Sequence record: OX457022
Direction: 5' to 3' (one strand)
Source of the DNA: Escherichia phage vB_EcoP-CC1
DNA: 44,532 nucleotides
In this document: one piece after another, positions 1 to 44,532 of the stretch
Numbering within the stretch: position 1 is the first letter of the stretch
Layout of the letters: each line of letters begins with the position of its first letter
Notes under the pieces: model-generated
The model's input: only the letters and a program-made list of their open reading frames with translations
What the model was told of the DNA's origin: nothing
Database searches by the model: none
Position numbers and translations under genes: made by a program

Positions 1-127
1 CATGTGCTGAAGGAGTGGCCTACATGCGACCAAACTTCGACTTCGGAGCTACAGTATCGGAAGACAATAATCTCATCCTGTGGCCGACTGAAGGTGAGAG
101 AATCGCTCTCATAGATGCTGACATGTT
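1..127. repeat. terminal overlap of the contig (identical to 44406-44532)
   Basis: Exact 127-nt identity between window start and end; consistent with a circular or concatemeric assembly opened inside the exonuclease gene. Confidence 0.95.
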
Positions 128-1052
128 ACCTTATATCGTAGGGTACACAATCAGTGACATGACTTATGTACGAGCCACAACTCGTGTTAAGTCAGGACAA
201 GTCCAATCAATCAAAGATACACCTGAGTGTAAGCAAGCATGTGACCGTGTGAACTCCTTGCTTAACTCTTGGGTGTATGCAGCAGAGTGTGATGCAGCTA
301 AGCTATTCATGACAAAATCAGAAGCTAACTTCCGTGTTCGCCTAGCATTCACCAAGCCTTATAAGGGTCAACGTAAGACCGAGAAGCCTCCATTCTTCTA
401 TGAATTACGAGAGCATCTCTTAGAGGTGCATGGTGCAATCTTGGCTGATGGTGAGGAAGCAGATGACCTAATGAGCATCGCACAATGGGACAGCCATCGC
501 CGCTTCCAGCAAGATACAGGTAACGAGTTCCCTATCGGTAGTCCAGAGCATAAAGCATTCTCTGATACTTGCATCGTTTCCTTAGATAAGGATTTGATGA
601 TTGTTCCCGGTTGGCATCTACTGCCGGGAGGTGAGAAGAAATGGGTAGAGCCTATGGGTTGGCTTGAGCTACGCCGCAAGGCTAATGGTCAAGTGAAAGA
701 CCTTAAAGGTGCTGGCCTCATGTTCCATTATGCACAGATGATTATCGGTGATGACATAGATAATTATGCTGGCATACCTGGGCGTGGAGCTAAATATGCC
801 TATGATCTTCTCAAAGATTGCAAGACAGAGAAAGAGTTGTACATGGCAGTGCTTGGTGCTTACAAGGCTAAGTTCGGACATGGACAAGTTAAGATTAAGA
901 ATTACCGAGGTGGTTATCGTATCGGCAAGGCTTTTGATCTCATGCTTGAATGTGGTCGCCTAGCTCACATGGCGAGATTCAAAGGTGATATCTGGAGGGC
1001 TGATAAGAATGAAATCTTATGGGGAGAAGGTGATGGATGGCTAGTAAACTAA
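24..1052 (+). CDS. 5'-3' exonuclease (T7 gene 6-like, FEN/H3TH family)
   Basis: ATG at 24 with AGGAG 8 nt upstream (ORF track begins at GTG 15); H3TH-like motif GDDIDNYAGIPGRGAKYA; sits beside endonuclease and ligase. Confidence 0.8.
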   Translation: MRPNFDFGATVSEDNNLILWPTEGERIALIDADMLPYIVGYTISDMTYVRATTRVKSGQVQSIKDTPECKQACDRVNSLLNSWVYAAECDAAKLFMTKSEANFRVRLAFTKPYKGQRKTEKPPFFYELREHLLEVHGAILADGEEADDLMSIAQWDSHRRFQQDTGNEFPIGSPEHKAFSDTCIVSLDKDLMIVPGWHLLPGGEKKWVEPMGWLELRRKANGQVKDLKGAGLMFHYAQMIIGDDIDNYAGIPGRGAKYAYDLLKDCKTEKELYMAVLGAYKAKFGHGQVKIKNYRGGYRIGKAFDLMLECGRLAHMARFKGDIWRADKNEILWGEGDGWLVN

Positions 1053-3002: not shown

Positions 3003-3950
3003 ATGAATATCTTTGAGTTCCTAGGTCTTCCAGAAGATCACCGCAACCACCCATTCATGTTGGTGAAACATCGTGGTGAAGTCCCTGAGAAGAAATTAAC
3101 CTTTCCATGTTATGCACAGGTGAAACGAGATGGAATATTCAGTGCTGTTGTGGTGCGTAATGATGGTGCTGTTGCCATCTTTGGTCGTACTGGTAAGAAG
3201 CTCGCAAATGTTGAAGCCTTGGAAAAGACATTTAGTGTATTTCCTGTCGGGTTGTATCTTGGTGAGTTGCAATCTATGGCTGTTGATGTTTATCTTGAAG
3301 CTCTATCAGGAGTGGTAAACCCTAATCGTACAGAGCCACTTGATTTCATAGGCCAGCAGATTAAAGACAACCTGTATATCGACTTCTTCGATATGTTAAC
3401 CATTAAGGCATTCCATGATGGATTCACTGATGTTTCTTATCTCAAACGTTACGATGCTTTACATCGTCGCATCGGCACTCATCTTAGCGGGTACAACGCT
3501 ATTCTTCCTATTACTCCTTGCCATAATGAGAGAGAGGTTGAAGCGTTTGCTCAAGAGCAAATAGATGCAGGCCGAGAGGGTGCTGTCTTTAAACTTGACT
3601 GTGATTATGAAGCAGGCCATAAAGGATATCGTCAGACTAAAGAAGTCCGTAAGGTAACTTATGACCTTACTTGTATTGGCTTTGAAGAAGGCAAAGGTAA
3701 GTACAAGGGTAAGGTAGCTAACCTCATTTTCAAATGGAAAGGAGGCAAGACAATCAAAGCTATGCTAGGTAAGGGGTGGACTCATGCAGATGCAGAACAG
3801 ATGTTCCATGATATTAAACATGGCGGACGATTGAATGTCATTGGTAAAATCTTTGAAGTCAAAGGTCTTCAGGATTCAAGCAAGGGCAACATTCGTCAGC
3901 CCAAAGCGGGAGAATTAAGACATGACAAAGATGAACCAGATTTCTTTTGA
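3003..3950 (+). CDS. ATP-dependent DNA ligase
   Basis: Adenylation motif KxDG present as VKRDGIFSAVV; ~315 aa; ORF track start 2985, likely start ATG 3003. Confidence 0.8.
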   Translation: MNIFEFLGLPEDHRNHPFMLVKHRGEVPEKKLTFPCYAQVKRDGIFSAVVVRNDGAVAIFGRTGKKLANVEALEKTFSVFPVGLYLGELQSMAVDVYLEALSGVVNPNRTEPLDFIGQQIKDNLYIDFFDMLTIKAFHDGFTDVSYLKRYDALHRRIGTHLSGYNAILPITPCHNEREVEAFAQEQIDAGREGAVFKLDCDYEAGHKGYRQTKEVRKVTYDLTCIGFEEGKGKYKGKVANLIFKWKGGKTIKAMLGKGWTHADAEQMFHDIKHGGRLNVIGKIFEVKGLQDSSKGNIRQPKAGELRHDKDEPDFF

Positions 3951-4137
3951 TAGTATGAAGGCGACTCGTGCTGTTGAGGTAGCAGAAGCTATCTTTGAAA
4001 CTTTATCTTGCGGCATGGAAGTGCCATATACTTTACTGGCTGATGCAGAAGAACTTGGTCTTTCTGTAGAAGCTATCCAAGAGAAAGTTGAGGAACTCTA
4101 TGGTACAGACGAAGAAGAAACCGACGATTTCATTTGA
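3922..4137 (+). CDS. hypothetical small acidic protein
   Basis: 71-codon ORF, GGGAGA 8 nt upstream of ATG; overlaps ligase 3' end; acidic C-terminus. Confidence 0.4.
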   Translation: MTKMNQISFDSMKATRAVEVAEAIFETLSCGMEVPYTLLADAEELGLSVEAIQEKVEELYGTDEEETDDFI

Positions 4138-7413: not shown

Positions 7414-7435
7414 ATTTACTGGACACTATAGAAGG
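7414..7435 (+). promoter_or_regulatory. phage RNAP promoter class I (ATTTACTGGACACTATAGAAGG), +1 G at 7431; capsid promoter
   Basis: Exact family consensus 55 nt upstream of capsid ATG. Confidence 0.85.
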
Positions 7436-30820: not shown

Positions 30821-30913
30821 GATGGTAGCTTCTTAGTCTGGATAGGTTAAACCTAGGGGATTCTCTTGAGTCTCCTATAATGTAACCTAACTAACTAAAT
30901 GAGGATTAATAAC

Positions 30914-31273
30914 ATGACTATGTCTAATATGACTTACTCTCAGGTTTACAACACCGCTCATGCTGCATTAGTTGAACGTATCTGGAATGATGCTATTGAT
31001 TGTATCGATAACGCACATGATGCAATCCATGAGGTAGCGGACAGTGCTGTACCAATCTATTATGCTGACATCTTCTCAGTGATGGCGAGTGAAGGTATTG
31101 ATCACTTCTTCGAAGACTCCGGCCTGATGCCAGATACTAAGGATGTAACGGTCGTACTACAAGCCCGTATTTATGAACAACTCACCATTGATTTATGGGA
31201 ACGTGTTCAAGATATGATTGTTGCGTACACCAATTACGCTGAGGATTCAGAAGAAGAAGAAGAGGAAGAATAA
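30914..31273 (+). CDS. ocr: Ocr (T7 gene 0.3-like DNA-mimic anti-restriction protein)
   Basis: MTMSNMTY...[42 protein letters not shown]...[14 protein letters not shown] plus poly-Glu tail matches recalled T7 Ocr nearly residue for residue; GAGGA RBS. Confidence 0.85.
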
Positions 31274-35774: not shown

Positions 35775-37763
35775 ATGGCTATTATTCAGAACGTACCGTG
35801 CCCTGCCTGCCAAAAGAATGGACACGATAAATCCGGCAACCATCTTATGATATTTGAGGATGGCGCTGGTTACTGTAACCGTGGTCATTTCCATGATAAT
35901 GGCAAACCTTATTACCATAAGCCAGAGGGCGGCATCGAGATAACCGAATTGCCCATTACTGGCAATATCAAATACACACCTTCTCAATTCAAAGAAATGG
36001 AGAAGGAAGGGAAGATAAGCGACCCTAAGCTACGCGCCATCGCACTTGGTGGTATGCGTATGAAAGACCGTTGGGAGGTCATGAATGAGCAAGAAAGGGC
36101 AGACCAAGAAGCAGAGTGGAAACTTGATGTTGAATGGTTCCTCACGCTTAAGCGTAAGAACCTTGTTTCCCGACACATTCGCGGCGACATTTGCGCATTG
36201 TATGATGTACGTGTCGGACACGATGAAGAGGGTAGAGTCTCGCGGCATTACTATCCACGCTTCGAGAAAGGTGAGCTAGTAGGAGCTAAGTGTCGCACAT
36301 TACCTAAAGACTTTAAGTTTGGTCATTTAGGTAAACTCTTTGGTATGCAAGATCTTTTCGGGATGAATACTTTGTCTCACGTGTTAGACAAGGGAAGACG
36401 AAAGGATTGCTTGCTTATTGTTGGTGGGGAACTGGATGCGCTAGCAGCGCAGCAGATGCTCCTTGATTCTGCCAAGGGTACTAAGTGGGAAGGTCAACCT
36501 TACCATGTATGGTCTGTTAACAAAGGGGAGTCTTGCCTTGAAGAGATTGTGCAGAACCGTGAACACATCGCCCAATTCAAGAAGATTATTTGGGGCTTCG
36601 ATGGGGATGAGGTAGGGCAGAAGCAGAACCAGCAAGCGGCTCGCCTGTTCCCTGGCAAATCTTATATCCTTGAATACCCCTCTGGTTGCAAAGATGCCAA
36701 CAAGGCATTGATGGCTGGTAAAGCCAAAGAATTTGTGGATGCTTGGTTTAATGCAAAGTCATCTGATGAAGTCTTTGGTAGCCAGATTAAATCTATCGCA
36801 TCTCAAAGGGATAAGCTCAAGGCTGCACGTCCAGAACAAGGGCTGTCATGGCCTTGGCCTAAGCTAAACAAGGTAACACTGGGTATCCGTAAGAACCAGC
36901 TTATCATTATAGGTGCAGGCTCTGGTGTTGGTAAGACAGAGTTCCTCCGTGAAGTGGTAAAGCATCTCATCGAAGAACACGGTGAATCTGTAGGTATCAT
37001 TTCTACAGAAGACCCGATGGTCAAAGTGTCCCGTGCTTTTATCGGTAAGTGGATTGATAAGCGTATTGAACTACCGCCAACCAATGACCCGAAAGAAGAT
37101 GGCTACCGTGAGGTGTTCGACTATACAGAGGAAGAGGCTAATGCTGCCATTGATTATGTAGCTGATACAGGGAAGCTGTTTGTAGCTGACCTAGAGGGTG
37201 ACTATTCGATGGAGAAGGTAGAGCAAACTTGCCTAGAGTTTGAGGCTATGGGTATTTCTAATATCATCATTGATAACTTAACGGGGATTAAATTAGATGA
37301 GCGTGCTTTTGGTGGGAAGGTTGGTGCACTTGATGAATGCGTCAAACGAATTGGTACTATCAAAGACCGACATGCGGTTACGATTTTCCTTGTCTCTCAC
37401 CTTACACGCCCTCCGGCAAACCGTACCCAACACGAAGAAGGTGGCGAAGTTATCCTTTCTGACTTCCGAGGCTCAGGCGCTATCGGATTCTGGGCATCTT
37501 ACGCCTTGGGGATTGAGCGTAATACAAGAGCTGAAACGCTTGATGAACGGACTACCACGTACATCTCATGTGTCAAAGACCGCGACCAAGGTATCTACAC
37601 TGGAACCAAGGTCATGCTTAAGGGTGACATTCAAACCGGACGTTTAATGGAACCACAAGCCCGTACTAAGTCATTTGATACAGGTGAAGCAAGGCAACAA
37701 GAAGTACCTGATTTACCGGACACTATAGAAGAGACAACCTTTGACGATGAACAGGAGTTTTGA
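35775..37763 (+). CDS. DNA primase/helicase (T7 gp4-like)
   Basis: N-terminal zinc-binding CPACQKNG...GYCNRGHFHD, central primase-type region, helicase Walker A GAGSGVGKT; acidic C-terminus DDEQEF. Confidence 0.9.
   Translation: MAIIQNVPCPACQKNGHDKSGNHLMIFEDGAGYCNRGHFHDNGKPYYHKPEGGIEITELPITGNIKYTPSQFKEMEKEGKISDPKLRAIALGGMRMKDRWEVMNEQERADQEAEWKLDVEWFLTLKRKNLVSRHIRGDICALYDVRVGHDEEGRVSRHYYPRFEKGELVGAKCRTLPKDFKFGHLGKLFGMQDLFGMNTLSHVLDKGRRKDCLLIVGGELDALAAQQMLLDSAKGTKWEGQPYHVWSVNKGESCLEEIVQNREHIAQFKKIIWGFDGDEVGQKQNQQAARLFPGKSYILEYPSGCKDANKALMAGKAKEFVDAWFNAKSSDEVFGSQIKSIASQRDKLKAARPEQGLSWPWPKLNKVTLGIRKNQLIIIGAGSGVGKTEFLREVVKHLIEEHGESVGIISTEDPMVKVSRAFIGKWIDKRIELPPTNDPKEDGYREVFDYTEEEANAAIDYVADTGKLFVADLEGDYSMEKVEQTCLEFEAMGISNIIIDNLTGIKLDERAFGGKVGALDECVKRIGTIKDRHAVTIFLVSHLTRPPANRTQHEEGGEVILSDFRGSGAIGFWASYALGIERNTRAETLDERTTTYISCVKDRDQGIYTGTKVMLKGDIQTGRLMEPQARTKSFDTGEARQQEVPDLPDTIEETTFDDEQEF
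37711..37732 (+). promoter_or_regulatory. phage RNAP promoter class I embedded in primase/helicase 3' end (ATTTACCGGACACTATAGAAGAG), +1 G at 37728
   Basis: Exact consensus inside coding sequence (encodes DLPDTIEET). Confidence 0.7.
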
Positions 37764-37924
37764 TGGAAATTATTAAACCATTATTAAATATCGGCGTTGA
37801 CATCCTATTCATGCTTATGCTAGCAAACTATGCTGCACGATATGGATTCAAGCCAGCTGTGAAACTTATCGTTGCATCTGGTTTTCTTATGTCAATGTTC
37901 TTTATTGTAACACACCTTATCTAG
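37763..37924 (+). CDS. hypothetical small hydrophobic protein (53 aa)
   Basis: Below ORF-track cutoff; TGATG overlap with primase stop; two predicted hydrophobic segments. Confidence 0.35.
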   Translation: MEIIKPLLNIGVDILFMLMLANYAARYGFKPAVKLIVASGFLMSMFFIVTHLI

Positions 37925-37940
37925 TGTATTTATCAGGGCT

Positions 37941-37958
37941 TGTCTCACATGTGAGACA
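37941..37958. repeat. 18-bp perfect palindrome TGTCTCACATGTGAGACA
   Basis: 17 nt after stop of small ORF; identical to copy at 15571. Confidence 0.9.
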
Positions 37959-37996
37959 GGCTCTTATTAAGTACATTAAATAACTGGAGATTGATT

Positions 37997-38719
37997 ATGT
38001 ATAAATTAGTATTGAATGCAGGTGATTATGTTCGTAACATCAATGAAGCCTCACGTCGTTATCGTTGCCGTGGTGTGGTTAGCTATGTAAGTGAGAACAT
38101 GTACCATGTGGAGTACAGCAACGGCATTAAACAATCTTATCATAAGAAGTTAGCACATAACTACCTTGAGAAGATTGGCGAGACAAGCAATCAATGCAAG
38201 TGTGTACATGATGAGGTTTGCGATAAGTGCAAACGTCAGGCAATTAAAGCCTTTACCTTTGCGCAACGTTATGGTTCTATGTATGGTGCTGGTCACAAGA
38301 CCGTTGCAGAAGCAGCTTGGAAGACATTACAGTTTGAGCATTCAAATGGACGACGCACCACAATTAAGAAAGAGCGCCGCAATGTCATCACTGGTAAGAC
38401 TCAAAGTGAGATGATTAAGCAATGTGGCACTGCATTAGGTGTTACACAGTTCAATACACGTGCTCTAGGTAAATCTACAGGACAAGCTATGTTTAAGATT
38501 GGTGAAGCCATGATGCACCCAAATGTACCTGTGCGAATCATGGATGTTGACCATGCAATCACAGAACATGGTACAACACGGCGTGTAGTTAATAATCATT
38601 TTGCCGACACTATAGAAGATATTATCCGTAAGCAAGGATTGAAAGGTCTTCACATCTTAAATGGTGAAGAGTTGCTGTACCTTCCTATTGTTACCGAAGA
38701 AACCTACGTGAATATCTAA
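37997..38719 (+). CDS. hypothetical protein (240 aa) with Cys cluster
   Basis: GGAGA RBS 6 nt upstream of ATG 37997; CKCVHDEVCDKC cluster; between primase and DNA polymerase. Confidence 0.55.
   Translation: MYKLVLNAGDYVRNINEASRRYRCRGVVSYVSENMYHVEYSNGIKQSYHKKLAHNYLEKIGETSNQCKCVHDEVCDKCKRQAIKAFTFAQRYGSMYGAGHKTVAEAAWKTLQFEHSNGRRTTIKKERRNVITGKTQSEMIKQCGTALGVTQFNTRALGKSTGQAMFKIGEAMMHPNVPVRIMDVDHAITEHGTTRRVVNNHFADTIEDIIRKQGLKGLHILNGEELLYLPIVTEETYVNI
38588..38609 (+). promoter_or_regulatory. weak promoter-like sequence inside coding region (ATTTTGCCGACACTATAGAAG)
   Basis: Core CACTATAGAAG intact but 3 mismatches at -13, -12, -10; probably non-functional. Confidence 0.2.
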
Positions 38720-38729
38720 GGAGTTAATC

Positions 38730-38918
38730 ATGACTAAAGTATTGATTTATATGAGAGGTGCTAATAAATGCTATGCAGTTGTAGCACCTGATGGGGTCAA
38801 GCCTTACGGTACTTCAAAAGGATTAGCATTAATAGGTGCTAGTCGCAGTGCAAGTTTCCAAATGGAACTTTTTGGTCATTGGACTGAAAAAAAGAATTCC
38901 GTGAAGAGTTTAATGTAA
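38730..38918 (+). CDS. hypothetical protein (62 aa)
   Basis: AAGGAG RBS 7 nt upstream. Confidence 0.5.
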   Translation: MTKVLIYMRGANKCYAVVAPDGVKPYGTSKGLALIGASRSASFQMELFGHWTEKKNSVKSLM

Positions 38919-38939
38919 TTGGCAGCTTTATGGTGAAAC

Positions 38940-39137
38940 ATGCAAAATAAACATAGCCTTAAGATGTTTGATGGTCACGAAGACCTGCAAGCACAAATTA
39001 CCAACCAAGCCTTCCTGTTTGCACAGTTAACTATGGCTGAAGCAAAGAAGAACAGCCTTACTCGTGAGCAGATTATCAAGGAAGGTAGCCGTGGTGCTAC
39101 TCGTCGTACCAAGAACCACAGAAGTGGTGCTCGCTAG
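38940..39137 (+). CDS. hypothetical protein (65 aa)
   Basis: ORF only; weak RBS. Confidence 0.35.
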   Translation: MQNKHSLKMFDGHEDLQAQITNQAFLFAQLTMAEAKKNSLTREQIIKEGSRGATRRTKNHRSGAR

Positions 39138-39153
39138 TCGATAAGTCAAGGGT

Positions 39154-39171
39154 TGTCTCACGTGTGAGACA
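39154..39171. repeat. palindrome family member TGTCTCAC-GT-GTGAGACA
   Basis: 17 nt after preceding stop; flanked by AAGGG...CCTTT. Confidence 0.9.
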
Positions 39172-39201
39172 GCCTTTCATCATATTGATTGGAGGTGCAT
39201 T

Positions 39202-39309
39202 ATGCCACGTGATTATGATTCTGATTGGGACTACTATGACTCAATGAATCCAAAACCCGAACGTTCAGATGATTACTACGAAACAGAGGCAATGTATGAA
39301 AACTATTGA
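39202..39309 (+). CDS. hypothetical small acidic protein (35 aa)
   Basis: Below ORF-track cutoff; GGAGGTG RBS; Asp/Tyr-rich; overlaps DNA polymerase start. Confidence 0.4.
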   Translation: MPRDYDSDWDYYDSMNPKPERSDDYYETEAMYENY

Positions 39310-41842
39310 TTGGAAGAAGGAAGCAGAAGGCCGCATCCTCGTCATGGACGCAGAAGCTAAAGGTCTGCTTGATGCTATCCGCTACGGTCATCGTGAAGAT
39401 GTACACATCATTTGCTGCATGGACTTGCTCACCACTGAGGAGTTCCTCTTCTTCGACCCATATGAGATGCGTGACCCTGAAGCAAGAGAACGCCTGAAGG
39501 AGTGGGAAGGCCATCAAGATGGTGACTTGGTTGACGGTGTTAACTTCCTGAAACACTGTGAAGCTATCGTGTCACAGAACTTCCTAGGGTATGACGGCCT
39601 CCTTTTTGAGAAAGCCTTCCCTGATATCTGGAAAGGTTTTAACTATACCGAAAGGCGCGGCAAGGGCAGACTCCGTGCCGACCTGTGTCCTGTGCGAGTC
39701 ATGGACACGCTGGTGATGAGCCGCCTGTTAAACCCCGATAGACGCCTTCCTCCGCAAGCATATGCCAAAGGTATGGGTAACGTCGCCCCTCATTCAATTG
39801 AGGCGCACGGCATCCGTATAGGACGCTATAAGCCGGAGAATGAGGACTGGTCTAAACTAACTGACCACATGGTTCACCGTGTCCGCGAGGACGTGGCAAT
39901 CGGTCGTGACCTTTTCCTGTGGCTGTACAATGGAGAGTGGACGGAGCATAAACGCCGTGGCGTGAATAAACGCACTGGCCTAGGCATTGAGACAGCCTTC
40001 CACATGGAGTCTATTGTGGCGCTGGAGATGAGCCGTCAGGCAGAGCGTGGATTCCGTCTGGATATTGACAAAGCACTAGCGCGATGCGAAGAACTGGACG
40101 CTAAGATTGATGAGACAGTCGCAGCGTTCCGCCCTCACATGCCTATGCGTATCAAGTCTAAACCTTTTAAACCGGAAGAAAAGAATGAAGTATGCCAACG
40201 CGCAAATGAGTATGGAGCTAGCAACAATATACCTACTGTCCTTGACCCCTCACACTTTCTTCATGCCGAGAGACGAGGAGATCGCAAGACAGTATGGAGT
40301 GTCACTACTAAGTCTGGTGATTGGTCGGCTAGCGTCAAGAAAGACTTTCCTCACCTTAGAGGAAACCGTAATGACACGCCAAGCATCAAGTGGATTGGCG
40401 CTTACTCGCCTGTTACTTTCGAAGAGATTCCCTTGGGTAACAGGGATACAGTTAAGCAAGTGCTCTATGATTATGGATGGAAAGGTGTTGAATTTAACGA
40501 TACCGAGCAAGCGCATCTCGATGAGCATGGCGTATTACCCAAACCTTGGAGTGGAAAGATAAATGAGAAATCCCTTACTTTATGGCAAGAAAGAGCCGCA
40601 CGTGAAGGTAAAACAGTACCAGATTGGTGCTTGGGTATCGCTGCATGGTACATACTCGTATCCCGTCGTGGTCAGATCCTCAACCGTGGTGACGTTGAAG
40701 CCTTCGATCAGAAGGGGGCGTGGCCTTCGCAAGCTGGTGTACGAAAGTGTCGCGGCCTTATACCTGTAGCCTTTAACAAGGAATTAGGAATCAATGCGCA
40801 ACAATACTACGAGAGGTATGGGTATTGGCCTACGTCTGACAAGGATGACGGAGAGTGGCGTGTGCCAGCTATTGCTATTAGTATTGGCACTTCTACGTTC
40901 CGTATGCGTCATCGCAATGTGGTTAATATTCCTGCCCGTGGCTTGTATCCTTTACGTGATTTATTCATAGCAGGTAAAGGTAAGCTAATCCTTGGTTGTG
41001 ATGGTGCAGGTCTTGAACTACGTGTACTTTCTCACTTCATGAATGACCCTGAGTACCAAGATATTGTACTGCATGGCGATATACATACTCATAACCAGAT
41101 GAAGGCGGGTCTTCCTAAGCGTGATATGGCGAAGACATTTATATATGCCTTCCTTTACGGCTCTGGTATAGCTAACCTTGCAGCAGTGTGCGGTGTTACT
41201 GAGGAAGAAATGAAGGAAGTTGTGGCAAGATTCGAGATTGAATTACCATCCCTTGCACGTCTTCGTGAGAATGTTATCGCACAAGGCAACAAGTTTGGAT
41301 ACTTACAAGCACCTGACGGGCATTGGGGTCGCATCCGTATGTCTGGTGGAGAACTTAAAGAGCACACTATGCTTAATGTATTACTCCAAATGACTGGCTC
41401 TTTGTGTATGAAATACGCATTGGTCAAAGCGTTTGCAGTGATGCGCAAGGAAGGTGTGGCCTTAGATAGTATGGGACACCCTTGTGGTGTAGCTAACGTG
41501 CACGATGAAATCCAGATGGAAGTACCTGAAGAAGAGGTATTGTATCTTAACTACGACCTACCTTTCACCTTAGAGGGGTTTGAAACAGAGAAGGCTGCTG
41601 TGAAAGCAGTATTCGATGCAGAGGAGAAACGTGTTCATGTGGATTCTGAAGGACGTATGTGGTCTGCTGCAAATCTCATTAGTGTTGATGCTGCTGCTGG
41701 TGTACTTCATTGCCAGCGTCGTTATCACCGCGCAGGGCATATCATTGCCGACGCCATGACTTGGGCTGGTCAGTATCTGAAGATGCGTTGCCCGATGGCA
41801 GGCGAGTATAAGATTGGCGCAAGCTGGAAGGAAACGCACTAG
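39296..41842 (+). CDS. DNA polymerase (family A, T7 gp5-like)
   Basis: 848 aa from ATG 39296 (ORF track 39269); polymerase-type motifs incl. HDEIQMEV; position after primase-helicase. Confidence 0.9.
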   Translation: MKTIDWKKEAEGRILVMDAEAKGLLDAIRYGHREDVHIICCMDLLTTEEFLFFDPYEMRDPEARERLKEWEGHQDGDLVDGVNFLKHCEAIVSQNFLGYDGLLFEKAFPDIWKGFNYTERRGKGRLRADLCPVRVMDTLVMSRLLNPDRRLPPQAYAKGMGNVAPHSIEAHGIRIGRYKPENEDWSKLTDHMVHRVREDVAIGRDLFLWLYNGEWTEHKRRGVNKRTGLGIETAFHMESIVALEMSRQAERGFRLDIDKALARCEELDAKIDETVAAFRPHMPMRIKSKPFKPEEKNEVCQRANEYGASNNIPTVLDPSHFLHAERRGDRKTVWSVTTKSGDWSASVKKDFPHLRGNRNDTPSIKWIGAYSPVTFEEIPLGNRDTVKQVLYDYGWKGVEFNDTEQAHLDEHGVLPKPWSGKINEKSLTLWQERAAREGKTVPDWCLGIAAWYILVSRRGQILNRGDVEAFDQKGAWPSQAGVRKCRGLIPVAFNKELGINAQQYYERYGYWPTSDKDDGEWRVPAIAISIGTSTFRMRHRNVVNIPARGLYPLRDLFIAGKGKLILGCDGAGLELRVLSHFMNDPEYQDIVLHGDIHTHNQMKAGLPKRDMAKTFIYAFLYGSGIANLAAVCGVTEEEMKEVVARFEIELPSLARLRENVIAQGNKFGYLQAPDGHWGRIRMSGGELKEHTMLNVLLQMTGSLCMKYALVKAFAVMRKEGVALDSMGHPCGVANVHDEIQMEVPEEEVLYLNYDLPFTLEGFETEKAAVKAVFDAEEKRVHVDSEGRMWSAANLISVDAAAGVLHCQRRYHRAGHIIADAMTWAGQYLKMRCPMAGEYKIGASWKETH

Positions 41843-42026
41843 TGGATAGATTAGATATTGTTTGCTTGTTCTTTACCTTCTTTCTTGTCTTTCTTATGCT
41901 TGCTTGTTATGGAAGTATTCAGGTAAATATACCTGATGAAGAGGAAGGATACGACTGAGTTATACTCAAGGTCACTTACGAGTGGCCTTTATGAATAACT
42001 TACTCCTACTTATTTTGTCTAACATG

Positions 42027-42048
42027 ATTTACTGGACACTATAGAAGG
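42027..42048 (+). promoter_or_regulatory. phage RNAP promoter class I (ATTTACTGGACACTATAGAAGG), +1 G at 42044
   Basis: Exact consensus downstream of DNA polymerase gene. Confidence 0.85.
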
Positions 42049-42103
42049 AAAGCCTAGGTAATCTAGGTTTATAAGGTAGTATAGGTAATTAAGTAAATAT
42101 AGG
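42046..42103. repeat. periodic AGG array (AGG at 42046, 42056, 42065, 42074, 42083, 42101)
   Basis: AT-rich TAGG/TAAGG units at 9-10 bp period in leader of 125-aa gene. Confidence 0.8.
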
Positions 42104-42113
42104 AGATATAAAT

Positions 42114-42491
42114 ATGTCTATGGTAACTACTCTGGTATTCGTAGCTCAATACTTTCGTGGCCTGGCTAATAAGTTTAAACAGAAAGCAATCTTTGCAATT
42201 CAAGAACGTATTAATAAAATTGAAGAAGAACAAGTAGATGTAGAGGAACATCGTAGTTCTCAGATGATTGACCTGCATAATCGTCTGTACAAAGATCGTG
42301 ATGAGATGCGTCACCGTCATGCGAAGGAAGTTGAAGACATGCTTAACCGCCATGCGGAAGAACAAGCTAAGTTGGAAACCACTTTCCATGAGGATAAACG
42401 TAGCATCGCTCTAGCACATCAAGCTGCATCGGATAGCCTGAAGAAAGAGATTGTTATGCTGGAGATTGAGTTAGACAATCTTACCAAATAA
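42114..42491 (+). CDS. hypothetical coiled-coil protein (125 aa)
   Basis: RBS TAGGAGA; charged heptad-like sequence through most of the length. Confidence 0.55.
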   Translation: MSMVTTLVFVAQYFRGLANKFKQKAIFAIQERINKIEEEQVDVEEHRSSQMIDLHNRLYKDRDEMRHRHAKEVEDMLNRHAEEQAKLETTFHEDKRSIALAHQAASDSLKKEIVMLEIELDNLTK

Positions 42492-42511
42492 TTACTGGAC
42501 ACTATAGAACA
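42490..42511 (+). promoter_or_regulatory. phage RNAP promoter (AATTACTGGACACTATAGAAC), +1 G at 42507
   Basis: One mismatch from class I consensus (A for T at -16); overlaps stop codon of preceding gene. Confidence 0.7.
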
Positions 42512-42653
42512 ATAGGTCGGCTTAGTTCGGCCTATGATTGTAAAGTGTTGAACCTTATTGTGCATCTTGCACAACCCGATACCGTATCGGGCTTTCTAGT
42601 GAGTACATGCTTGTGCTCAGTACAAAGCTAACTGACAATAGGAGACTAAATAA

Positions 42654-43460
42654 ATGGCACGTGGTGATTTTGATTTTGGTGCTCAAGTTACTAAAGCTGA
42701 AGGTAAAGTATTTAAGAACCCAGAAGTAGGTGATCATGAAGCAGTTATCTCTGGCATCATTCATGTTGGTTCCTTCCAAGACATCTTTAAGAAAGGTAAT
42801 ACCACTGAAGTTAAGAAGCCAGCAAACTTTGTTCTGGTTAAGATTATCCTGATGGGTGACGATGACAAGAACGAAGATGATTCTCGCATGGAACAATGGA
42901 TGGCTGTGCCTCTGAAGTCTGGTGATAAGGCAACACTGACTAAGTTCCTGAATGCAGTTGACCCTAAAGAATTGCTTGGTGGCTTCGATGACTTCATTGG
43001 TGAATGCCTGACTGCAACCATGGTTGGCTCTGGTGATAAGAATGACGATGGCTCATTCAAGTATGTTAACTGGAAGGGCTTTGGTGGTATGCCGGAAAAG
43101 CTGAAGAAACTTGTAATTGCTCAGGTTGAAGAAGAAGGTCTGTCTATGACAGGTCACATTACCTTTGACAAGCTGACCAAAGAAATCCTTGATGATATTC
43201 CTGCTAACTTGGTACGCCAATACTTCCTGAATGAAACACCTCGTGGTAAGAACCTGTCTGTTGCTGGTTCTCACGTAGAAGAAATCATTAAAGCTGCTCG
43301 TGAAGAAGACCCAGAATGGAAGAAGGCTAAGAAGAAAGATGATGAGGATGCTACTCCAGCTAATCGTAAGTCTCTGGATACTGGCGAGTCTGTTCCGCAG
43401 GAAGTGCCTGAAGCAGAAGACGCACCTGCACCGGAAATGGATGAAGACGCGGAATACTAA
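42654..43460 (+). CDS. hypothetical protein, possible ssDNA-binding protein (gp2.5-like by features)
   Basis: 268 aa in replication module; acidic C-terminal tail ending in aromatic residue (EMDEDAEY) like the T7 gp2.5 tail; RBS TAGGAGA. Confidence 0.5.
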   Translation: MARGDFDFGAQVTKAEGKVFKNPEVGDHEAVISGIIHVGSFQDIFKKGNTTEVKKPANFVLVKIILMGDDDKNEDDSRMEQWMAVPLKSGDKATLTKFLNAVDPKELLGGFDDFIGECLTATMVGSGDKNDDGSFKYVNWKGFGGMPEKLKKLVIAQVEEEGLSMTGHITFDKLTKEILDDIPANLVRQYFLNETPRGKNLSVAGSHVEEIIKAAREEDPEWKKAKKKDDEDATPANRKSLDTGESVPQEVPEAEDAPAPEMDEDAEY

Positions 43461-43469
43461 GGAGGGATG

Positions 43470-43688
43470 ATGAAGGTACAAATCGTAACCCTGCACTGCA
43501 AGAAGGGCATTACAACCCTTGGCGGAAACACTTTTCACTCCTTCTCTGAAGGGGAGACATATTCTGACCTGCACTACATCTGGCGCGATGGGCAGCACGT
43601 GGTGAACTACAGCGACCCCGCTACAGGGAAACGCCACGGCGTATCTCTTCCGGCGCACGACATTGCTCAGGTGAACACAGTTTTATAA
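43470..43688 (+). CDS. hypothetical protein (73 aa)
   Basis: Strong RBS TAAGGAGGG. Confidence 0.5.
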   Translation: MKVQIVTLHCKKGITTLGGNTFHSFSEGETYSDLHYIWRDGQHVVNYSDPATGKRHGVSLPAHDIAQVNTVL

Positions 43689-43689
43689 A

Positions 43690-43705
43690 GTCTCACATGT
43701 GAGAC
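43690..43705. repeat. palindrome family member GTCTCAC-AT-GTGAGAC
   Basis: Starts 2 nt after preceding stop; 15 nt upstream of promoter 43721. Confidence 0.85.
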
Positions 43706-43720
43706 AAATCGGTGTCCAGT

Positions 43721-43742
43721 ATTTACTGGACACTATAGAAGA
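43721..43742 (+). promoter_or_regulatory. phage RNAP promoter class I (ATTTACTGGACACTATAGAAGAG), +1 G at 43738
   Basis: Exact consensus 55 nt upstream of 122-aa gene. Confidence 0.85.
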
Positions 43743-43792
43743 GAAGAATTTTAATCGGCGATAATGCCATAACTAACAAAGGAGAATTTAAT

Positions 43793-44161
43793 ATGTTCAA
43801 GATTGAAACTATCGTAAACCGTGTTGTTAAAGGTGCTGCTCTGGTGTCCGTTGAATCTTTCATTATCGTCGATGAAGCTGATCAACTGGTAGCTGGCACT
43901 AAGGCTTACGATACCCGTGAAGAAGCTCAGGCTAAGATTGACAGCATGGGTAACTTTGCTGCTGGTCTGGAGTTCGCTCGTGCTTGCTTCCCTGAGCAGG
44001 CTGACAAAGCACAGATTGGTAAGGCTAATATCGTAGCTGAATATCTGGATTGGGTTGCTGCTGGTAAACCAGTGAAAGAAGCTAAGGCTGAAGAAGCTGA
44101 AGCTCCTGCAGTAGAAGAAACCAAAGCAGAAGAAGCTCTGTCTGCTGAAGAAGAATTTTAA
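43793..44161 (+). CDS. hypothetical acidic protein (122 aa), own promoter and terminator
   Basis: RBS AAAGGAGA; net charge about -12; C-terminus AEEEF; monocistronic unit. Confidence 0.65.
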   Translation: MFKIETIVNRVVKGAALVSVESFIIVDEADQLVAGTKAYDTREEAQAKIDSMGNFAAGLEFARACFPEQADKAQIGKANIVAEYLDWVAAGKPVKEAKAEEAEAPAVEETKAEEALSAEEEF

Positions 44162-44167
44162 TTGATG

Positions 44168-44203
44168 CCCTGTCTGCCTTAGTGTAGGCAGGGTCTTTTG
44201 TGT
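44168..44203 (+). terminator. T-phi-like terminator (paralog of 8695-8730)
   Basis: Stem CCCTGTCTGC/GTAGGCAGGG (two G-U pairs), loop CTTAGT, then TCTTTTGTGT; compensatory changes relative to the 8695 copy. Confidence 0.7.
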
Positions 44204-44225: not shown

Positions 44226-44519
44226 ATGCCGACTATTGAAGAACGTTTCCTGATTCACGTAGACTTCTCACCCATACATCTTGGTTATCTTATCACTATT
44301 CTCTTAGGAGAGGAGGTTTATCTACATAATTACCTTATACCTGAATATGTATGTTTTAGGGATAAGATACACCCGCTTACTTGGGCACAAGAGTGGCTGC
44401 GTGAACATGTGCTGAAGGAGTGGCCTACATGCGACCAAACTTCGACTTCGGAGCTACAGTATCGGAAGACAATAATCTCATCCTGTGGCCGACTGAAGGT
44501 GAGAGAATCGCTCTCATAG
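44226..44519 (+). CDS. hypothetical protein spanning the contig junction
   Basis: 97-codon ORF with GGAGA RBS; runs into the duplicated 127 nt and would overlap exonuclease start by about 90 nt in another frame. Confidence 0.3.
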   Translation: MPTIEERFLIHVDFSPIHLGYLITILLGEEVYLHNYLIPEYVCFRDKIHPLTWAQEWLREHVLKEWPTCDQTSTSELQYRKTIISSCGRLKVRESLS

Positions 44520-44532
44520 ATGCTGACATGTT
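44406..44532. repeat. terminal overlap of the contig (identical to 1-127)
   Basis: Exact 127-nt identity with window start. Confidence 0.95.

Follow-up and report, generated by a model that had tools for sequence, protein, structure and literature searches.

In phage T7, the C-terminal tails of gp4 and gp2.5 bind the T7 DNA polymerase (gp5). These proteins end in ...NDTDF and ...EDGDF respectively, the DTDF peptide of gp4 has been seen on the polymerase (PDB 6P7E), and deletion of F232 abolishes the interaction between tail and polymerase. T7 gp2.5 is both an SSB (a protein that binds single-stranded DNA) and an annealing protein that stimulates the T7 exonuclease, and its tail is needed for the stimulation of that enzyme, gp6. 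The DNA analysed here, 44,532 nt of Escherichia phage vB_EcoP-CC1 (sequence record OX457022; "the window"), belongs to a K1E/SP6-like Vectrevirus. SP6, K1E and K1-5 are classic phages, known as the source of SP6 RNA polymerase and as models of capsule-targeting therapy. Three proteins in the window carry acidic tails with an aromatic end: the primase-helicase, a 268-aa protein (gp16 of K1E, gp18 of SP6; gp16 hereafter) and a 122-aa protein (gp18 of K1E, SP6_20; gp18 hereafter). We think it likely that one docking peptide is shared by the helicase-primase, by gp16 acting as a putative SSB and by gp18, and that it would address a common, phage-encoded site. The features concerned are collected in Table 1.

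Table 1. Features of the tail-bearing proteins and their surroundings in the window
Feature	Residues	Position (nt)	Strand	Remarks
5'-3' exonuclease (T7 gp6-like, K1E gp20 equivalent)		24-1052	+	phrog_107, E 6.9e-72
Exonuclease N-terminal motif		36-50		six-frame motif scan
ATP-dependent DNA ligase		3003-3950	+	ends ...RHDKDEPDFF; Pfam DNA_ligase_A_M, DNA_ligase_OB_2
71-aa protein		3922-4137	+	ends ...GTDEEETDDFI; phrog_5860, "unknown function"
Primase-helicase (K1E gp9 equivalent)	662 aa	35775-37763	+	Pfam DnaB_C, Toprim_2; phrog_239, E 3.6e-188
Helicase C-terminal tail, disordered	626-662	37650-37760	+	net charge -9 over last 37 residues, terminal F
F-D-T-G motif in helicase tail		37674-37685	+	29 residues from C-terminus
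Helicase terminal peptide DDEQEF		37743-37760	+	C-terminal sequence and homolog comparison
Family A DNA polymerase (K1E gp13 equivalent)		39269-41842	+	Pfam DNA_pol_A, phrog_17
Phage-type promoter AATTACTGGACACTATAGAAC		42490-42510	+	upstream of 268-aa gene
gp16, predicted OB-fold protein, proposed SSB	268 aa	42654-43460	+	phrog_862, "unknown function"
gp16 N-terminal peptide	1-25
gp16 FDFGA motif	6-10	42669-42683	+	conserved, predicted disordered
gp16 OB fold (predicted)	26-147	42729-43094	+
gp16 helical subdomain	148-228	43095-43337	+
gp16 acidic tail	229-268	43338-43457	+	40 residues, predicted disordered
Consensus phage promoter ATTTACTGGACACTATAGAAG		43721-43741	+	directly upstream of 122-aa gene
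gp18	122 aa	43793-44161	+	phrog_4429, "unknown function"
gp18 A/E/P-rich linker and terminal SAEEEF	93-122	44069-44158
Intrinsic-terminator-like hairpin and U-run		44167-44200 (hairpin 44167-44194)	+	after 122-aa gene; 11-bp stem

The primase-helicase ends in ...TTFDDEQEF, gp16 in ...PEMDEDAEY and gp18 in ...LSAEEEF, exactly as the preliminary description had stated. When the 49 plus-strand ORFs were screened for a terminal F, Y or W together with at least three D/E within the last six residues, four passed against 0.11 expected from the internal 6-mer rate (binomial P=5e-6 for at least four ORFs, 2e-4 for at least three), and three passing ORFs were reached in 0.02% of 5000 composition shuffles. 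The fourth passing ORF is the ATP-dependent DNA ligase. Under the same strict test gp2.5 alone passes in T7.

The tails of the helicase, gp16 and gp18 are non-random, conserved and co-varying. In gp16 the form M[DS]xxxE[YF] is kept in 24 relatives with identity down to 33%, while S[AE]EEEF in gp18 is near-invariant among close relatives (119 of 120) and an ExF/EEF ending is found in 19 of 24 relatives with identity down to about 30%. Most of 33 helicase loci, down to 42% identity, end in xE[FY]. In SP6 the helicase ends in QEFNG, which shows that the helicase can do without an aromatic residue whose carboxylate is free at the very end. Among relatives of all three proteins the linkers drift while the terminal peptides persist, and essentially all homologs of these three unrelated tail proteins, at 30-100% identity, carry F or Y as the final residue or at position -2/-3. 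In one Klebsiella-phage lineage (loci L027-L029) all three tails end in Tyr (EEESEY, DEGAEY, TEAEEY), and in a Pseudomonas-phage lineage (L041 and L044) Phe stands at -2 or -3 in all three (ETFD/EEVFE/EAFEG and KTFE/EQTFD/EESFS). Such concerted change within lineages, of which these two are the instances, argues for a single receptor, encoded by the phage and common to the three tails. Early and middle proteins of phages often have acidic low-complexity ends, and the window does hold acidic ends that lack a terminal aromatic (the Ocr-like protein; ...DDFI of the 71-aa protein), so that the tails might be a compositional coincidence in which the aromatic residue has no role. With four ORFs passing the test where 0.11 are expected, and with the aromatic kept at the end or at -2/-3 while linkers vary and changes are concerted by lineage, this explanation is highly improbable.

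An acidic run with a final Phe is also the format of bacterial SSB tails, the host SSB ending in ...DDDIPF. The tails, especially that of gp18, could then imitate the host SSB C-terminus and fill the pockets for it on host proteins such as exonuclease I, RecQ, PriA or the chi subunit, which would be recruited or inhibited, with no docking on a phage protein. Besides this format, gp18 has the profile of many host-takeover proteins of the T7 group, being small, acidic, very highly expressed as judged by sequence signals, and without a known fold. However, the tails of bacterial SSBs hardly vary among proteobacteria and the pockets that receive them depend on the last Phe having its carboxylate free, whereas the phage tails shift jointly by phage lineage, either to Tyr or to Phe at -2/-3, as they would with a co-evolving phage receptor. 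The peptide is moreover found on the helicase-primase and on an OB-fold protein, core parts of the phage replisome, and we regard mimicry of the host tail as quite unlikely.

Structure prediction, one of the checks that had been proposed, returned for the 268-aa protein an OB fold, a helical subdomain and then a disordered acidic tail. The tail has pLDDT <50 at residues 229-256 and 266-268, a net charge of -13 and a terminal Y, and the OB-fold core is mildly acidic overall (net -6). When the predicted fold was compared with known structures, the best PDB matches were ssDNA binders, the top one being PrgE. gp16 is similar in size to T7 gp2.5 and resembles it in pI (4.68 versus 4.70) and in tail charge (-13 versus -12). 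By codon usage gp16 ranks 2/41 for capsid-likeness. It is named "hypothetical" in all matches listed among 215 phage records, where no SSB is annotated, and profile searches found no other SSB candidate among the non-structural ORFs of the window. We read gp16 as the missing SSB of the K1E/SP6-like phages, with ssDNA binding predicted from the modelled fold.

In the profile comparisons made, the proposed SSB matched neither T7 gp2.5 nor bacterial SSBs by sequence. PF21265 (T7 gp2.5 family, DUF2815 group), which all gp2.5 homologs carry, gave no match at E <=1 with 24 gp16-family members, and hhalign of the gp16-family alignment against a 22-sequence gp2.5 alignment returned a probability of 0.1%. 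Neither T7 gp2.5 nor the Enc34 SSB came up among the best structural matches, the bacterial SSB profile PF00436 did not match gp16, and bacterial SSBs were only weak Foldseek matches (E >0.09). A profile that does respond is NCBIfam NF046043, "phage replication initiation protein, NGO0469 family", which 19 of the 24 family members match below its cut-off (best E 2.5e-13). The gp16 of the window scores 18.2 bits (E 0.0014) against a curated cut-off of 75 bits, over residues 20-105, the first half of the OB fold, and on these profile scores the relation is one of remote homology, not of membership.

These matches could be taken to mean that gp16 is a recombination or initiation factor, either a single-strand annealing protein that partners the exonuclease or a protein that handles origins or primers, while the host SSB serves replication. 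An N-terminal motif that co-varies between gp16 and the 5'-3' exonuclease recalls exonuclease/annealase pairs, and the closest fold, PrgE, is not a classical SSB. However, the NGO0469 name goes back to a weak BLAST similarity of 2007 (26-32% across some 100 residues) and was never put to a test. The SSB and annealing roles are combined in T7 gp2.5 and are thus not mutually exclusive, and very high codon adaptation suits a DNA-coating protein better than an initiator. A non-SSB role for gp16 therefore seems unlikely to us. As an SSB, gp16 would coat ssDNA with its OB-fold core, its N-terminal peptide would probably link neighbouring molecules as in PrgE or T4 gp32, and its acidic tail would shield the DNA-binding groove and hand gp16 to partners. 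A sequence family unrelated to T7 gp2.5 would thus have arrived at the same design.

The primase-helicase has a Toprim primase and a DnaB-type helicase (DnaB_C match, E 4.9e-15) on a single chain, as in the T7 gp4 type. By analogy with T7 gp5, and only so, we infer that the candidate receptor for the tails is the DNA polymerase. Where T7 has its thioredoxin-binding domain, this polymerase carries an insertion in the thumb. The front basic patch of T7 (K587-R591), located in a 14-residue loop, is absent from this polymerase and from SP6-like ones, and as a receptor the polymerase would use another surface. Under the shared-peptide reading, an acidic, flexible linker with [DE]-x-x-E-[F/Y]-COOH at its end would tether the replication proteins to a common site, which may be the DNA polymerase, as in T7, and/or the basic groove of the SSB itself. 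Leading- and lagging-strand polymerases, helicase and SSB would exchange on this one site.

The globular domain of gp18 (residues 1-92) consists of a beta-hairpin and three helices, for which the fold search matched no known fold, and the protein has a pI of 4.4. It is not an OB fold, and neither a profile nor a fold match was found with DUF1508/UPF0339 (YegP-like). The preliminary description had suggested that the 268-aa and/or 122-aa proteins are replisome components, SSB-like or accessory. This is supported for gp16 as the SSB-like protein, while for gp18, not being an OB-fold protein, "SSB-like" is dropped and "accessory" fits better. What that description said of the T7 tails agrees with the published work on them. 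The gene was also described as its own promoter-terminator unit. Its promoter is a 21-mer identical to the one before the major capsid gene (7414-7434), and the strong terminator hairpin has a dG of -18.3 kcal/mol (z -4.97), with 0/200 shuffles as stable. At the consensus level this description is borne out, but read-through is expected from the promoter upstream of gp16, which leaves the unit without insulation at its 5' side. In codon usage gp18 is the most capsid-like gene of the genome (rank 1/41), and the codon usage of gp16 and gp18, with the promoter and terminator of the latter, would suit proteins that are required stoichiometrically. Even the most distant loci have, downstream of gp16, a small gp18-like protein whose tail is acidic/aromatic. 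We picture gp18 as an abundant small accessory, the tethered peptide being its only recognisable functional element, that would either bring its globular domain to the common site or compete for the site and tune exchange. To our knowledge, no regulator acting as such a tethered-tail competitor has been described in T7 or T4.

Two further proteins may carry the tail. In the ligase a short aromatic-ended tail follows directly after the OB domain, the Pfam domains reaching residue 312 of 321. Its tails in 38 homologs are mostly [PAG]D[FY] or D[FV][FY], with several ending in V, A, E or Q, and it is a possible fourth, less well conserved carrier. The 71-aa protein, with codon usage rank 4/41, is a possible fifth; most of its relatives have an acidic tail that is aromatic in its last residue or close to it. 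The window also encodes an Ocr-like protein with an acidic end (...EEEEEEE) that has no terminal aromatic.

A second motif, F-D-x-G, is newly noticed here. It occurs in the tail of the helicase as well as N-terminally in gp16 and in the exonuclease, and it co-varies within each phage. In the last 55 aa, FD.G is present in 31 of 33 helicase homologs, versus 0-2 matches in each of 14 other protein families. In the gp16-family alignment M1, F6, G9 and A10 are invariant, and pLDDT is <50 at residues 1-5 and 10-17. The exonuclease, whose gene spans the window junction (its start is also present at 44429), begins MRPNFDFGATV, and its motif and that of gp16 co-vary across the 40 loci compared. An extended wiring by two motifs can be imagined, in which [DE]xxE[F/Y] would mark the helicase-primase, the SSB, gp18 and possibly the ligase and the 71-aa protein, and F-D-x-G the helicase, the SSB and the exonuclease. 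The exonuclease would then enter SSB filaments by imitating the cooperativity peptide, and gp18 would set the rate of polymerase, helicase and SSB exchange. We consider this extension doubtful.

If gp16 is the SSB, it would complete a minimal replisome of polymerase, helicase-primase and SSB, and reconstitution in vitro would thereby become possible. Phage SSBs trigger several bacterial defence systems, and recognition of the gp16 family thus matters for predicting how sensitive therapeutic Vectrevirus and Zindervirus phages are to defence. The coordination by acidic tails worked out in T7 would also be older and more modular than the proteins that bear them. Here the peptide is carried by an OB-fold family with no relation to that of T7 and, in addition, by a further small protein.

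In comparison with T7, gp4 and the helicase-primase here have tails of like format, with the terminal motif being xE[FY] here and xDF in T7. T7 gp2.5 and gp16 are alike in an OB-fold core, predicted for gp16, and in a disordered acidic tail of about 30-40 residues with a terminal aromatic, yet gp16 has in addition the helical subdomain and the conserved N-terminal FDFGA peptide. T7 has no counterpart of gp18 bearing the tail. The OB core of gp16 is structurally close to PrgE of the Enterococcus plasmid pCF10 (PDB 8s4s, 8s4t) at 12-14% identity. PrgE (about 17 kDa, 144 residues) has neither the helical subdomain nor the long acidic tail, and it serves conjugation, not replication. It binds dsDNA and ssDNA equally and is no typical SSB. 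Its N-terminal tail binds the neighbouring monomer on DNA. The N-terminus of gp16 has the invariant peptide M..F.FGA, which is predicted to be disordered. T4 gp32 is a three-part SSB with an N-terminal cooperativity peptide, a core and an acidic C-terminal protein-interaction domain. No homology between T4 gp32 and gp16 was detected, and the gp32 core contains zinc and its N-terminal peptide is basic, whereas gp16 begins with F-D-F-G-A; the same three-part logic is nevertheless what we propose for gp16.

When the sequence was re-read, the C-termini that the preliminary description had given for the primase-helicase, the 268-aa protein and the 122-aa protein (DDEQEF, EMDEDAEY and AEEEF) matched exactly. 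In K1E numbering these proteins are gp9, gp16 and gp18, of which gp16 and gp18 are annotated in K1E as "hypothetical" and fall into PHROGs with no function assigned. A tail test requiring a terminal F, Y or W plus at least three D/E within the last six residues was passed by 4 of 49 plus-strand ORFs, where 0.11 were expected from internal 6-mers (P=5e-6). Since the fourth of these ORFs encodes the DNA ligase, the DNA-metabolism module holds all four. With T7 as the control, gp2.5, which binds single-stranded DNA as an SSB (ssDNA-binding protein), passes and the primase-helicase gp4 (...SNDTDF), with two acidic residues among its last six, narrowly fails. An Ocr-like anti-restriction protein (phrog_2568, 30899-31273) has an acidic end without an aromatic residue, a different kind of tail.

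Among homologs of gp16, gp18 and the helicase the terminal peptides are kept and the linkers drift. The gp16 tail reads M[DS]xxxE[YF] in 24 relatives with identity down to 33%. Of 33 helicase loci with identity down to 42%, most have the tail xE[FY]. For gp18, 119 of 120 close relatives carry S[AE]EEEF, and ExF is kept by 19 of 24 relatives with identity down to about 30%. The SP6 helicase-primase (3257-5242 of contig L012) ends ...NTQEFNG, a two-residue extension beyond the aromatic residue relative to the ...NTQEF of close relatives. We regard the tails, with high confidence, as functional motifs.

Co-variation was analyzed in 42 viral contigs around gp16 homologs. In contigs L027-L029 all three tails end in Tyr. 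L041 and L044, from a lineage of Pseudomonas phages, have Phe in each of the three tails at -2 or -3, with one or two residues after it. The three tails thus change together within lineages. Such concerted change is expected of three peptides that share a single co-evolving pocket encoded by the phage, and, being seen in two lineages only, it is suggestive rather than conclusive evidence. Were the tails instead mimics of the host SSB tail, they would be copying an invariant sequence, with which lineage-concerted change is hard to reconcile.

As to the phage-encoded pocket, the precedent invoked earlier, docking of the acidic gp4 and gp2.5 tails of T7 onto DNA polymerase, agrees with published work. 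The T7 tails bind the front basic patch of the polymerase (K587, K589, R590, R591) and its thioredoxin-binding domain; the DTDF peptide of gp4 has been observed on the polymerase. When T7 gp5 was aligned with 14 SP6-like polymerases, the basic-patch loop (K587-R591) fell in a 14-residue gap, and the window polymerase (39269-41842) lacks this loop. A simple transfer of the T7 binding site therefore fails, and homology does not tell which protein is the receptor. Where T7 has the thioredoxin-binding domain, the window polymerase has a thumb insertion of similar size (~85 residues), in a region where the alignment is unreliable. By functional analogy the polymerase may still be the receptor, and it is the leading candidate at somewhat under even odds; the DNA-binding groove of the SSB itself is a second candidate. 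Overall, the proposal that these are docking tails of replisome components is supported by the tail statistics, the conservation, the concerted change and the T7 precedent.

The SSB-like role proposed for the 268-aa and/or the 122-aa protein, for which an OB fold was to be sought, is supported for gp16 and not for gp18. An AF2 model of gp16 from a 24-sequence alignment (pLDDT 79.8, pTM 0.72) contains a canonical OB fold, whereas the gp18 model (pLDDT 82.5) consists of a hairpin and helices (see table).

Features of the tail-bearing and FD.G-bearing proteins (nucleotide positions refer to the window)
Protein	Feature	Position	Basis
Exonuclease	FD.G motif, N-terminus MRPNFDFGATV	36-50	
gp16	FD.G motif, N-terminus MARGDFDFGA (MARGDFDFGAQV)	42669-42683	
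Helicase	F-D-T-G motif in tail KSFDTGE, 29 residues from end	37674-37685	
gp16	canonical OB fold, predicted	residues 26-147	AF2
gp16	helical subdomain, predicted	residues 148-228	AF2
gp16	tail, largely low-confidence	residues 229-268	AF2
gp18	beta-hairpin, predicted	residues 3-26	AF2
gp18	three helices, predicted	residues 42-89	AF2
gp18	disordered A/E/P-rich linker ending EEEF, predicted		AF2

Foldseek matched the gp16 model best to PrgE, apo as well as DNA-bound (E 2.5e-4 and 1.6e-3), followed by RPA, bacterial SSBs and PriB. PrgE, which is thought to be of phage origin, binds ssDNA as monomers arranged like beads along a thread, with its first 12 residues connecting adjacent monomers. In general properties gp16 resembles T7 gp2.5, with a length of 268 versus 232 aa, a pI of 4.68 versus 4.70 and a tail charge of -13 versus -12. 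No sequence relation between the two was found: hhalign against the gp2.5 family gave a probability of 0.1% and aligned only five residues (FKNPE/FGNPR), and none of the 24 gp16-family members matched PF21265. PDB sequence searches with gp16 and gp18, as single sequences and as a profile, returned nothing meaningful, and Pfam scans of both proteins and 24 relatives of each found no family. NCBIfam NF046043 ("phage replication initiation protein, NGO0469 family") matches 19 of the 24 gp16-family members (best E 2.5e-13), with gp16 of the window at 18 bits against a cut-off of 75; judged from these profile matches the gp16 family is a remote relative of NF046043. The name of the NGO0469 family derives from 26-32% BLAST similarity in 2007 and was never tested; the family may therefore be made up of OB-fold DNA binders instead.

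With tblastn gp16 was found in 215 phage records, and among the records listed all labels were hypothetical or unknown except one "HNH homing endonuclease". The bacterial genomes scanned held no prophage relatives. The codon usage of gp16, with the capsid gene as reference, ranks 2 of 41 genes, as would suit a protein produced in quantities that coat DNA. Among the non-structural ORFs of the window no further SSB candidate turned up, and none is named for SP6-like phages in the literature searched, whose coverage stopped short of the two original genome papers, Dobbins (2004) and Scholl et al. (2004). Most probably, gp16 is the missing SSB of this phage group.

Upstream of gp16, a 7-bp hairpin (42575-42591) lies between a promoter (42490-42510) and the start codon. 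With a dG of -9.8 kcal/mol and a z of -1.25 it is no more stable than shuffled sequence and is probably not a terminator. The 125-aa protein (K1E gp15, 42114-42491) is named "polysaccharide chain length determinant protein" in RefSeq and PHROGs, a name that looks doubtful given only weak coiled-coil-type Pfam matches.

A second motif, FD.G, is found near the N-termini of gp16 and of the T7 gp6-like 5'-3' exonuclease and within the helicase tail. The gp16 N-terminus, MARGDFDFGAQV, is invariant, yet predicted to be disordered. The N-termini of gp16 and the exonuclease co-vary phage by phage: K1E/SP6-like phages have FDFGA, phages of Vibrio, Marinomonas and Pseudomonas have FDYGG, and contigs L037-L039 have FDYGV. 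The last 55 residues contain FD.G in 31 of 33 helicase homologs, versus 0-2 matches in each of 14 other families, and three of the four occurrences in the whole proteome (13,777 residues) are the exonuclease, gp16 and helicase sites. Further upstream in the tails of the K1E/SP6 clade, KSLDTGE..QEVPE of gp16 resembles KSFDTGE..QEVPD of the helicase. T7 gp2.5 specifically stimulates T7 exonuclease, for which the gp2.5 tail is required. Any role of FD.G we infer by analogy: it may connect SSB molecules on DNA, like PrgE's N-terminal tail, and it may let the exonuclease and helicase dock onto the same surface.

Escherichia phage vB_EcoP-CC2 (OX638290) matches the window region at 100% identity; for K1E, K1-5 and further members of Vectrevirus (Autographiviridae, Molineuxvirinae) the identity is 91-98%. 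Positions 1-127 are identical to 44406-44532, a 127-nt assembly overlap of a circularly closed contig and not a biological repeat. The gene order therefore continues from gp18 through gp19 to the exonuclease at the window start, the exonuclease gene spanning the junction. The description of gp18 as its own promoter-terminator unit was borne out at consensus level: its consensus phage promoter is identical over 21 nt to that ahead of the capsid gene, the Shine-Dalgarno sequence is strong and the terminator hairpin stable. Its codon usage is the most capsid-like of the genome. The most distant loci encode a weakly related protein of ~78-100 aa at the same position (E 0.0025-0.36 against a local database of small size); the four examined (84-91 aa) likewise end ...ADEDF or ...EEAETF. 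From the expression signals, the codon usage and these tail-bearing proteins in distant loci, gp18 is a conserved, abundant tail carrier, its abundance being read from the first two. The globular domain, as modelled, gives no hint of activity.

Two other proteins may carry such tails. The ATP-dependent DNA ligase (3003-3950) ends ...RHDKDEPDFF, ~9 residues beyond its OB domain. The ending is [PAG]D[FY] or D[FV][FY] in most homologs, but several have a final V, A, E or Q. Perhaps the ligase is a fourth carrier, or perhaps its ending is unrelated. The 71-aa protein (phrog_5860, 3922-4137), with no function assigned, ends ...GTDEEETDDFI and ranks 4 of 41 in codon usage. In many relatives an aromatic residue closes the acidic tail or stands close to its end (DYQY, SEEY, DGSDW, DFDE), several relatives end purely acidic, and the protein is possibly a tail carrier too.

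The 2004 genome paper of Scholl and colleagues has C. C. Richardson, an expert on T7 replication, among its authors, so the tails may already be remarked on there or in the other primary paper on the SP6/K1-5 genomes, by Dobbins (2004). That acidic, aromatic-ended tails coordinate SSB, helicase and polymerase is already known from T7. New here are a likely SSB from a different, unannotated family with a predicted OB fold nearer to that of PrgE; an abundant small protein as third carrier of the same tail, possibly joined by the ligase and the 71-aa protein; a lineage-concerted change of the tails; and a second co-varying motif joining helicase, SSB and exonuclease.
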